Of a stretch of DNA of 64,000 nucleotides, positions 6,417 to 61,296 are shown piece after piece. The translations under genes and the position numbers were made by a program. The first letter of the stretch is position 1. The number at the start of each line of letters is the position of its first letter. The notes below the pieces were generated by a model. The model did not search any database, was not told the DNA's origin, and saw only the letters and a program-made list of their open reading frames with translations. Location: the sequence record PQ724393.1; one strand, given 5' to 3'. Source of the stretch: a phage.

Positions 6417-6445
6417 ATAGTATCATGCCATGAGGAGAAGTAAAC
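6417..6445 (-). promoter_or_regulatory. conserved early promoter
   Basis: Coding strand GTTTAC-17-TGATACTAT; arms CTCCTCATG/CATGAGGAG flank the -10 and include the SD. Confidence 0.6.
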
Positions 6446-35300: not shown

Positions 35301-35328
35301 GCAAAAAAGGAAGCCCTAGGCTTCCTTT
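35301..35328 (-). terminator. rho-independent terminator
   Basis: AGGAAGCC-TAGG-GCTTCCT followed by TTTTTTGC. Confidence 0.65.
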
Positions 35329-40102: not shown

Positions 40103-40576
40103 TCATTTAAGCGATTTCCTCAGTTGTTTTTTAAATGAATCGACCATTTGTTTCTTTGTGTCAGATTCATTATAAGTCATTCCATGTGAAAGCATTTCAG
40201 CAATCATTTCTTCCTTACCTAATCTACTGAACTCTTTGGTTTTATCAGTTACAAAAGTAGGGTGAATAGGATTCTTGGAGCAATCATTCTCGAGGTACGC
40301 AACTAGATTTTTAAGACACTCGAGGTAGTCGTTGCCACGACCTTTAAGACCAGAGCGTACAAATTGGTGTCTGCTGCGTCCTTCCCAGGCGTTACAAAGA
40401 TTACAGAGCAACCCACGAACTCGTCCGGCTTGTAGCCCTTCTAAATCATGAGAGTGGTCTAAGTGGTTACTTTGAACATCCGTATTTAGATGTTGTTTAC
40501 ATACTAAACACAAGCCCTGTTGGTCTTTGTACATCTGTTCTTTTTGTTCTTTATAAAGCTTGCCAGTCAACAACAT
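40103..40576 (-). CDS. 49: endonuclease VII (Holliday junction resolvase) gp49
   Basis: 157 aa; MLLTGKLYKE...HLDHSHDL...RGLLCNLCNA...NESDTKKQ...FKKQLRKSLK matches recalled T4 endo VII. Confidence 0.92.
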   Translation of the reverse strand: MLLTGKLYKEQKEQMYKDQQGLCLVCKQHLNTDVQSNHLDHSHDLEGLQAGRVRGLLCNLCNAWEGRSRHQFVRSGLKGRGNDYLECLKNLVAYLENDCSKNPIHPTFVTDKTKEFSRLGKEEMIAEMLSHGMTYNESDTKKQMVDSFKKQLRKSLK

Positions 40577-40611
40577 AATAAACCCTTACCATTATTAGAT
40601 AAGGGTATTTA

Positions 40612-40845
40612 TTATTTTTCGAATGTACTATAAAACGAGCGATGTAATCGTTTAAATTGACGCATCATCTTTTTGGTAGGTCGAGTGGACAATCCTACAC
40701 ATGTAGCCATAAACTGGTCAACAGGACTTCCTTTGATAAGAAGTTTCCAGACCTTTGCGCCATTTAATTTTTCAGTATAAATCAGTTCAGTTTTCATAGT
40801 AAAACCCAAACTCCATATCGATGAAATCATTGTTTGAAGGTTCAT
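40612..40845 (-). CDS. small basic protein, PTKRQ-motif family; start uncertain
   Basis: C-terminal STRPTKKMMRQFKRLHRSF. Confidence 0.45.
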   Translation of the reverse strand: MNLQTMISSIWSLGFTMKTELIYTEKLNGAKVWKLLIKGSPVDQFMATCVGLSTRPTKKMMRQFKRLHRSFYSTFEK

Positions 40846-57845: not shown

Positions 57846-58442
57846 TTAATTACCACGGGCTGCATTAGCAACGGCGTAAGCGTACTGAACATTAGCGTCT
57901 TTAAACGTACCTTTAGAGGTATCTATTTCTGCCTTAAAGCCACCTTTAGCCATAACATCAGCAAATTCTTTACGGAAAGCCATTGCATCAAGACCTTTCC
58001 ATGATGATTTGTGCTTGGCAAATTCAAGACCGGCGAAGTTGACAGCCTTAGCCAATTTATTATCAATAGTCCATTTACCTGCTTTAGGTACAACTACCGG
58101 GCCTTTTTGTTTAGAGAACAGTTTTAAATTCCAGCGACGAAGGTCGCCGTCAGCTTTAACAAAAGCTGCGTCCAAGTTACTAGCAACAACATCCTGAATA
58201 TGGCCAAATTTAAGCCCATCAGCTTCAATATTTAGGTCGTTACGCCAGCGAAGTCCTTCCCAGGCGAAAGCTTTAAAGTCAGAAGCTTTTGTAGCTAAAT
58301 ACCGTTCAATAGGAGCTGTTTTAGCGTCAAAACCATTTCCTGGGTTGTCAACGCCATTTCCTCGGTAGGTCCACTCATCTTTATTAATGCCTTGGACCTT
58401 TCCTACAGAAGCTTCGGCGATAAATTCTTTATACGTTTTCAT
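57846..58442 (-). CDS. ipIII: internal head protein, IpIII-like
   Basis: 198 aa; N-terminal MKTYKEFIAEA capsid-targeting sequence. Confidence 0.65.
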   Translation of the reverse strand: MKTYKEFIAEASVGKVQGINKDEWTYRGNGVDNPGNGFDAKTAPIERYLATKASDFKAFAWEGLRWRNDLNIEADGLKFGHIQDVVASNLDAAFVKADGDLRRWNLKLFSKQKGPVVVPKAGKWTIDNKLAKAVNFAGLEFAKHKSSWKGLDAMAFRKEFADVMAKGGFKAEIDTSKGTFKDANVQYAYAVANAARGN

Positions 58443-58495
58443 ACGGGTTCCTTAAAGGTAAATATTTTAATTAGTCTGTTCAATTAACTGTAGAT

Positions 58496-58524
58496 ATACT
58501 ATCACAATTCTAGGAGATGTAAAC
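58496..58524 (-). promoter_or_regulatory. early promoter upstream of ipIII-like gene
   Basis: GTTTAC-17-TGATAGTAT. Confidence 0.5.
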
Positions 58525-58529
58525 TGCTT

Positions 58530-59018
58530 TTATCTATAAGCGGCCCAAGTACCTGTTTTAAATGTTGAAATCACGCGCTTAGCACGGTTAGGGGTTTGCT
58601 TGTACCAACGAGATTGAGCCAGGTTAACTGCCGCATCGTTCCAACGTTTCTGTTGGAGCATACGTAAAGAGTTAGTGAACCCTGCTACACCTGCTTCACC
58701 CATTTGGAAGACCATGTTAATTAAAGCACAACGACGAACTTCATCGAGCACATCATAAACAGGTTTCAATTTAGGATTACGCAGAATAGCTCTACGAGCA
58801 TTATCAACCGACCGGTTAAAGAGTTGTTCTGCTTCAGCCATAGTAATACGACCATTACAAACTCGACCCATAAGCTTATCAAGTTCAGCGCGGGCAACAT
58901 CTTTAGATGGGTTCTTGGTAACTAACTGGCCAATACCAATAGTCCAATAACCTTCAGTGTCTTTATAAAGATTTAAATCAAGACCTTCGTCTTGACGTAA
59001 CATATCAAAAATATCCAT
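58530..59018 (-). CDS. e: lysozyme (endolysin) e
   Basis: 162 aa; [51 protein letters not shown] match recalled T4 lysozyme; SD AGGAGG. Confidence 0.95.
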
Positions 59019-59020
59019 AA

Positions 59021-59048
59021 TACCTCCTGAGTATAGGAGGTATTTATA
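59021..59048 (-). promoter_or_regulatory. gene e late promoter (TATAAATA) plus RBS-sequestering hairpin
   Basis: Coding strand GATATAAATA then ACCTCCT-ATACTC-AGGAGGT, where the second arm is the SD of e. Confidence 0.6.
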
Positions 59049-59498
59049 TCAAAAGAGCGAATCTAAAACCTTAAACATCGACGGGCCCATGACATATTTC
59101 CATTGTGGACGTTTAATCAAGGCAAAAGCATCGAATTCAGGAATCGTACGACCATCAGGGAACGTATGGTAAGCTGTACATTTGCAATTCTTGAACTGCT
59201 CGTGTTCCACAGGCACTGTATATAAGAACAGATGTAGATTCTTATTGCTTGAATATTTGAACTCACCTAGGTCTTTCAGGAATGCAGGATCGTATGCCGT
59301 GAATCCAATCTCTTCTTCGGTTTCACGCATTGCGGCTTGAATAGGCTCTTCGCCTGGTTCTACATGACCTTTAGGAATGTCCCATTTATGACGCATGTTC
59401 TCTGGATTACGAGAGCCTGTTACACGACCCATAACTAGTTCTTTATCAACGGTCATGAACAAAATACCGGCAGATAGTTCTTTAACTTTCTTACTCAT
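59049..59498 (-). CDS. nudE: Nudix hydrolase NudE (e.1)
   Basis: Start reset to ATG 59498 (8-nt overlap with upstream stop); Nudix box GHVEPGEEPIQAAMRETEEEIG. Confidence 0.8.
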   Translation of the reverse strand: MSKKVKELSAGILFMTVDKELVMGRVTGSRNPENMRHKWDIPKGHVEPGEEPIQAAMRETEEEIGFTAYDPAFLKDLGEFKYSSNKNLHLFLYTVPVEHEQFKNCKCTAYHTFPDGRTIPEFDAFALIKRPQWKYVMGPSMFKVLDSLF

Positions 59499-59727
59499 CG
59501 TCTCGTTCCCACGATTGTTTAAAGATATCTTGCATAATAATTTGAAGTCTATTTTCTGATGATGGACTTTCACTATCAGACACTTGAAGCATATAGTCAC
59601 CAATAGGACAGAACATATCCATATCGCTTTCTAAGTCTTCTTTGATTTTCTCTTCTGACGTTCCGGTATCATAGGAATACAGATAAGAATCACATGACTC
59701 AGATTTAATATAAATTGCAATACTCAT
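59491..59727 (-). CDS. hypothetical acidic protein (78 aa)
   Basis: Track ORF. Confidence 0.45.
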   Translation of the reverse strand: MSIAIYIKSESCDSYLYSYDTGTSEEKIKEDLESDMDMFCPIGDYMLQVSDSESPSSENRLQIIMQDIFKQSWERDDE

Positions 59728-61230: not shown

Positions 61231-61267
61231 TTTATTCTCCATTTCACTCTGTTGTTTTGATAGGTCT

Positions 61268-61296
61268 ATAGTATCACACCTATAGACCTTGTACAC
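61268..61296 (-). promoter_or_regulatory. conserved early promoter (variant -35 GTGTAC)
   Basis: GTGTAC-17-TGATACTATAGACCTATCAAAAC; inverted repeat GGTCTATAG/CTATAGACC. Confidence 0.5.

Follow-up and report, generated by a model that had tools for sequence, protein, structure and literature searches.

The DNA analyzed here (the window) is a stretch of 64,000 nucleotides from a phage. The locus under study lies on its minus strand, where gene e (58530..59018) encodes a T4-type soluble lysozyme (endolysin) of 162 residues, identified from its open reading frame, from a match to Pfam PF00959 (E = 1.2e-12) and by tblastn, in which the product is 76–79% identical to the lysozymes of T-even phages, the matches being annotated as e or endolysin. 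It is preceded by nudE (59049..59498, minus strand), which encodes a Nudix hydrolase (Pfam NUDIX, E = 6.9e-15) and is the final gene of the early unit that lies upstream. The gene order nudE-e-ipIII is the same in the window, in T4, and in JS98, and the 1.2 kb around e has 92–97% identity to JS98, fDHCT2, QL01, WG01, and other Dhakavirus phages; the window is that of a JS98-like Dhakavirus.

The stop codon of nudE (TGA, 59051-59049) adjoins an exact match to the gp55-type late promoter box, TATAAATA (59041..59048), which lies directly 3' of it. The box runs into a hairpin with a 5' arm, AATACCTCCT (59035..59044), a loop of 6 nucleotides, ATACTC (59029..59034), and a 3' arm, AGGAGGTATT (59019..59028), all on the minus strand; the arms form a perfect inverted repeat of 10 nucleotides that is also recovered by RNA folding. 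The 3' arm holds both the Shine-Dalgarno (SD) sequence GGAGG (59027-59023) and the entire spacer up to the ATG start codon of e (59016..59018), which directly adjoins the stem. Read on the minus strand, 59050..59016 consists of TATAAATA, CCTCCT, ATACTC, AGGAGG, TATT, and ATG in that order, flanked by CTCTTT TGA on one side and GAT ATT on the other, and this is an exact match to the string of late box and hairpin that the original prediction had placed upstream of e. The original prediction was also right in placing the SD in the 3' arm of the stem, but the stem, which it took to be a perfect helix of 7 bp, is perfect over 10 bp by both the inverted repeat and the fold. The last 4 nucleotides of the box (AATA) are at the same time the first 4 nucleotides of the 5' arm, and the sequence complementary to the SD (the anti-SD, CCTCC) is located inside the 5' arm, past the late box and ahead of the predicted transcription start, in the gap that would not be transcribed. 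Rfam covariance models gave no matches at E ≤ 1 in the region 58400-59700, and the JS98 record has no regulatory feature annotated at the e leader.

The location of the late transcription start can be predicted from the geometry of T4-type late promoters, in which the box extends from −13 to −6, with T/A variation at −13 among the relatives of T4 (PMC1524935, Nolan et al.). Because the last A of the box is at 59041, +1 is expected 6–7 nucleotides past it (59034..59035, minus strand), either at the base that closes the 5' arm (about 59035) or at the A that follows (59034). A late RNA that starts at the last base of the 5' arm is therefore unable to form the hairpin, and folding of RNAs starting at 59036-59033 indicates that the hairpin cannot form in any of them. 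A late promoter is marked by an 8-bp TATAAATA box that lies one helical turn or so upstream of the start, a −35 element not being required, and this is what is found relative to the predicted start of e. Late promoters are usually A+T-rich just downstream of the box (PMC2988020), and such a segment was not found downstream of the e box, where CCTCCT is 4/6 G+C; the functional first e box of T4 is followed by a similar CCTTCT. It should be noted that A+T-richness is a tendency, not a requirement, and the deviation from it here can be ascribed to the anti-SD function of the segment. The presence in this phage of gp55, gp33, and gp45 is assumed from its membership of the Tevenvirinae. The corresponding starts predicted for T4, at about 67018 and about 67005, are not mentioned in the text of bioRxiv 10.1101/2024.04.04.588121, a text that is separate from its start-site tables.

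The hairpin alone has a predicted free energy of −13.1 kcal/mol. Opening of AGGAGGUAUUAUG, the region from the SD to the AUG, is predicted to cost 12.0–15.6 kcal/mol in read-through RNA and 4.3–4.7 kcal/mol in late RNA. The probability that the SD GGAGG is unpaired is 0.000 in every read-through RNA folded and is predicted to be 0.21–0.23 in late RNA, in which the SD keeps a weak alternative pairing with the U-rich beginning of the coding region. When 90 candidate initiation regions of the window are ranked by opening cost, that of e comes 9th in its read-through form, and in its late form its cost is about the median (4.75 kcal/mol), but in this control 60 nucleotides of upstream RNA were set for every gene, which overstates closure for genes whose own promoter is immediately upstream.

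Perfect hairpins of at least 10 bp with loops of 3–10 nucleotides number 3 in the 64-kb window, compared with 0.65 expected from a first-order Markov model; to obtain such a hairpin by chance is rare, not impossible, and it is its exact placement over the SD that matters. The late box TATAAATA is not enriched in the window (4 copies found versus 6.4 expected), the 4 copies all being on the coding strand; 6 of the 8 boxes of the form WATAAATA are situated 14–38 nucleotides upstream of an SD and ATG; most of the window is early-gene territory. Taken as a whole, the local fold of 86 nucleotides at the e leader is unexceptional (z = −1.6). The case against chance is one of homology and of conservation in other genera, the latter being its strongest evidence, not of single-sequence statistics.

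Three other sites that came to light in these scans may be recorded here. At 15378-15399 (minus strand) a TATAAATA box (15399-15392) is followed by AGGCcaggaGCCT and the ATG of an open reading frame that begins MKSFKEVMNED; AGGCcaggaGCCT is a mini-hairpin of 4 bp, whose 5' arm is again located between the box and the predicted +1. At 13924-13955 (plus strand) a AATAAATA box is found 22 nucleotides upstream of AGGAGG and the ATG of an open reading frame of 66 codons (66 aa), and this is the only late-type box associated with a gene that is opposite in strand to nearly all genes in the window. A further hairpin, AAAGGAAGCC-CTA-GGCTTCCTTT at 35306-35328, has a perfect stem of 10 bp, lies between an A-run and a T-rich stretch, and may be a bidirectional terminator.

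The nearest early-promoter-type element upstream of e on the minus strand, recognized by motif only, is TGATACTATAGACCTATCAA at 61257..61276, ∼2.2 kb away, with GTG just before it. Allowing up to 3 mismatches, this 20-mer occurs 10 times in the window, where none is expected, always on the minus strand, with 5' ends at 6425, 9795, 16550, 17508, 45701, 47102, 51136, 55465, 57801, and 61276. It matches the T4 early −10 motif, TGTG(A/G)TA(C/T)(A/T)AT (bioRxiv 10.1101/2024.04.04.588121), and it probably represents the −10 region of an early promoter plus a conserved transcribed leader. The open reading frames between the element at 61276 and e are tightly packed or overlapping, and no terminator-like sites were called in a scan of the minus strand of this interval; the element at 61276-61257 is probably the source of early read-through RNA into e. 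As the nudE stop codon adjoins the late box, RNA that reads through nudE enters e with the full hairpin. Two matches resembling MotA boxes, at 59594 and 59847, were considered as middle promoters and rejected, being without a good −10 sequence. Some additional features of the early elements can be mentioned: all copies of TGATACTATAGACCTATCAA are just upstream of SD sequences, the first ∼10 transcribed bases, GACCTATCAA, are conserved among them, and at 61262-61289 a perfect 10-bp inverted repeat, AGGTCTATAG and CTATAGACCT separated by 8 nucleotides, overlaps the −10 region of the early-type promoter that precedes the e operon.

Leaders of e were taken from 34 loci in IMG/VR and from 9 annotated phages and compared. 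In Tequatrovirus, Mosigvirus, Dhakavirus, Karamvirus, Winklervirus, Gelderlandvirus, Jiaodavirus, Tegunavirus, Marfavirus, and several further lineages, the leader has an ATAAATA core with an anti-SD, a loop, and an SD after it, and the combination of box, anti-SD, loop, and SD is found, with differing stem registers, in at least 10 lineages of the Tevenvirinae. None of the 15 aligned Tevenvirinae leaders departs from the ATAAATA core, and the box is (T/A)ATAAATA in 13 of these, with GATAAATA, in which G precedes the core, in Marfa and in locus L026; A is frequent in place of the T at −13, in line with the description by Nolan et al. Four further Dhakavirus genomes in IMG/VR have exactly the leader of the window. 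The stem group that includes the window and T4 has the outer pairs AATA/TATT; Marfa, PG7, Jiaodavirus, and Winklervirus have the inner pairs TAT(C)/(G)ATA and have lost the outer pairs, and in one lineage CCUCC/GGAGG is changed to CCCC/GGGGG. The arm conserved in every case is that of the SD with its complement, and throughout the stem extends as far as the AUG or close to it. For the 22 unique e leaders with a recognizable box, the mean opening cost is ∼14.2 kcal/mol in the read-through form versus ∼4.3 kcal/mol in the late form, means that are approximate in that the regular expression used to find the box missed GATAAATA (Marfa and L026) and took a spurious GCTAAATA in PG7, giving a wrong late value of 14.4 for that phage. 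Among the leaders compared, a second box is found only in Tequatrovirus, most other genera having a single box; in these sequences, the form with a single box and a short loop is the common one, and the two-promoter form of T4 looks to be specific to Tequatrovirus.

The MAFFT alignment of the 15 leaders (A1) contains two stem types in different registers, and base pairs were counted on an alignment of 8 leaders that share the same register (A2). Both alignments have invariant ATAAATAC, GG.G, and ATG columns, and the 3' arm in the window is identical to that of T4. In A2, 91% of the cells are paired in the true register, compared with 42–59% when the partner is slid. Covariation in A2 is not significant, a single compensatory pair being matched by 63 of 500 shuffles, but weak covariation is to be expected because one arm holds the SD and the other shares bases with the promoter box. 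The e leader of the outgroup, Aeromonas phage AS-gz, has neither box nor hairpin, in agreement with the list of phages without the structure in a 2010 review (PMC3014915), which also reports that close T4-type relatives have similar leaders with a late promoter in the region encoding the 5' strand. At the distant IMG/VR loci L027 and L041-L043, whose lysozymes have 40–65% identity, an SD hairpin and a late-box-like motif occur in another order: in L027 (1440-1500) the sequence CCTCTTCTAAATATAATTTTAGAGGAGG has a CTAAATA box inside the stem-loop, and in L041-L043 (1440-1500) the anti-SD, CCTC, is upstream of a CATAAATA box and the SD is further downstream. These may be permuted forms of the e gate, as judged from the order of their motifs.

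The mechanism that operates at gene e of T4 has been described (PMC3014915, citing McPheeters et al. 1986, NAR 14:5813). Long early transcripts reach into e and form an inhibitory helix, lysozyme synthesis from such read-through transcripts is reduced ∼100-fold, and RNAs from either of the late e promoters are without the 5' strand and are well translated (PMC3014915). The claim of the original prediction that the arrangement is known for T4 gene e is in accord with this description, the leader in the window being orthologous. The element is therefore already known, and its conservation in relatives of T4 is already in print (PMC3014915). Experimental findings on the inhibitory structure, on the 5' ends of the late RNAs, and on the ∼100-fold effect are from T4 only; for the present phage, the late +1, the read-through of early RNA, and the magnitude of the effect are inferred from the resemblance to T4. 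For the leader itself, the present analysis provides sequence, fold, orthology, and conservation, and with high probability this leader is the orthologous counterpart in Dhakavirus of the translational gate at gene e of T4. In such a gate, early RNA polymerase would start upstream of e, probably at about 61276, and read through nudE into e. In the resulting RNA the anti-SD, CCUCC, just past TATAAATA, would pair with the SD in a 10-bp hairpin ending at the AUG, and this hairpin would block binding of the 30S subunit so that no lysozyme would be made from early RNA. Late, a gp55-containing polymerase would use TATAAATA and start at about 59035/59034, past the anti-SD, and the late mRNA, 5'-(U)AUACUCAGGAGGUAUUAUG..., having no 5' arm, would present an ordinary open initiation region. 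The choice of start would set translatability, and neither a ligand nor a protein would be required. This amounts to a precise prediction for the 5' ends of the late transcripts and opens no new question.

Other roles for the hairpin need to be weighed against this. It could be mainly an intrinsic terminator or a stabilizer of the 3' end of the nudE operon, with the overlap with the ribosome binding site of e being incidental, and in the record of PhAPEC2 (NC_024794, L002 1475-1511) the orthologous structure is indeed annotated as a 'putative terminator' (ARNold). The stem is also G+C-rich and directly follows a stop codon. However, the tail, AUGGAUAU, has no U-tract, the site was not called in the terminator scan, early transcripts of T4 are reported to continue into e (PMC3014915), and the conserved arm is the SD with its complement, in a stem extending to or near the AUG, a set of features that makes a role of this kind highly improbable. 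Identification as a rho-independent terminator was rejected, the stem being present but the AUGGAUAU tail having no U-run. The annotation in PhAPEC2 is probably a mis-annotation of the translational gate, and annotators should be aware that the e-leader hairpin is not a terminator, although it is so labeled in at least one public record. It is somewhat less improbable, but still very unlikely, that the leader is an inherited relic or a coincidence that has no regulatory effect in this phage, for example if little early transcription reaches e: the read-through into e is deduced, the late box is not enriched in the window, and the covariation statistics are not significant, but such a relic would not be expected to be identical in four other Dhakavirus genomes, to be kept as a hairpin in at least 10 lineages despite changes in stem register and in SD sequence, or to be absent, together with the box, from the Aeromonas outgroup.

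A third function, in which the hairpin chiefly governs RNA processing by shielding the GGAG of the SD from RegB or RNase E/G or by presenting it to them, is suggested by the fact that RegB cleaves early mRNAs at GGAG in their initiation regions (PMC3014915), and the AGGAGG of the e SD contains this sequence. The repression in T4 has been attributed to reduced 30S binding (PMC3014915), and processing could be an additional role that does not replace the gate; as the main function it is extremely improbable. The view that the leader acts as a translational gate, closed on read-through RNA and open on late RNA as originally predicted, is supported by orthology with T4, by the geometry of the promoter, and by conservation, and a classic device, temporal control of lysozyme by choice of transcription start, appears to be preserved in the JS98 group and across the Tevenvirinae.

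In T4, soc, 49, and I-TevI are other late genes that are closed on longer early transcripts (PMC3014915). Two of these genes have the same e-type design of late box plus hairpin in the window, a design already known for them in T4. Gene 49 (endonuclease VII; open reading frame 40576..40103, minus strand, ATG at 40576; Pfam PF02945 and PF09124) has, in the region 40576-40620, a AATAAATA box (40613-40606) and then a hairpin, ACCCTTA...TAAGGGT(TTATT), that covers the SD and adjoins the ATG. Its SD-opening cost, 18.4 kcal/mol, is the highest of the 90 initiation regions in the window, and its stem differs from that of e in having a bulge and in taking in more of the box. At soc (ATG at 13299, region 13299-13338, minus strand; Pfam PF16855), a TATAAATA box is present at 13338-13331 and the region just past the box is predicted to pair with the AAGGAG SD and the spacer. 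A related layout is found at an early gene, that of a modB-like ADP-ribosyltransferase (ATG at 11126, region 11126-11185, minus strand), which has a GTTTACA-N17-TATAAT promoter. There, a 10-bp hairpin, ATGACCTCTA/TGGAGGTCAT, begins inside the −10 hexamer, sequesters the SD, and adjoins the ATG. Its 5' arm overlaps the end of the −10 element, and RNA from that promoter would be without the 5' arm, which is the logic of e with an early promoter of the sigma70 type. The layout is seen also at loci L091 (RB69), L092 (E33), and L093 (Merlin) and is kept in three genera with differing stem sequences; in RB69 and Merlin the stems differ in sequence from that in the window. The modB case is absent from the list of genes in PMC3014915 (e, soc, 49, and I-TevI), and no description of it was found in the searchable literature. 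It is possible, although rather doubtful, that an anti-SD embedded in a promoter is a general, modular rule in these phages that extends beyond the four late genes, with the e gate permuted in distant lysozyme loci. If true, many phage genes would depend for their translation on the promoter from which the RNA arose.

Of the known systems, gene e of T4 is the closest to the leader described here. Base for base, the leader of the window can be aligned with its T4 ortholog, TTTTATAAATACCTTCTATAAATACTTAGGAGGTATTATG. The two have the same position, in the order nudE stop codon, box, hairpin, and e, the same 3' arm, AGGAGGTATT, immediately 5' of the ATG, a 10-bp stem that opens with the last 4 nucleotides of the TATAAATA box, and an anti-SD between the box and the predicted +1. 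They differ in that T4 e has two late boxes, the second TATAAATA being in the loop, whereas the window has one, and in the size of the loop, which is 10 nucleotides in T4 and 6 in the window. The stem in the window is perfect, with a C-G pair where T4 e has U.G, and the hairpin energies are −13.1 and −12.3 kcal/mol, respectively. The soc, 49, and I-TevI cases of T4 follow the same logic as e in the window, but in different genes and with unrelated stem sequences. In riboswitch expression platforms and RNA thermometers, as is predicted at e, an upstream anti-SD pairs with the SD and blocks translation. Unlike these generic SD-sequestering structures, however, the e leader in the window is without a ligand or temperature sensor, and its switch would lie in where transcription starts, and hence in whether the RNA contains the anti-SD.
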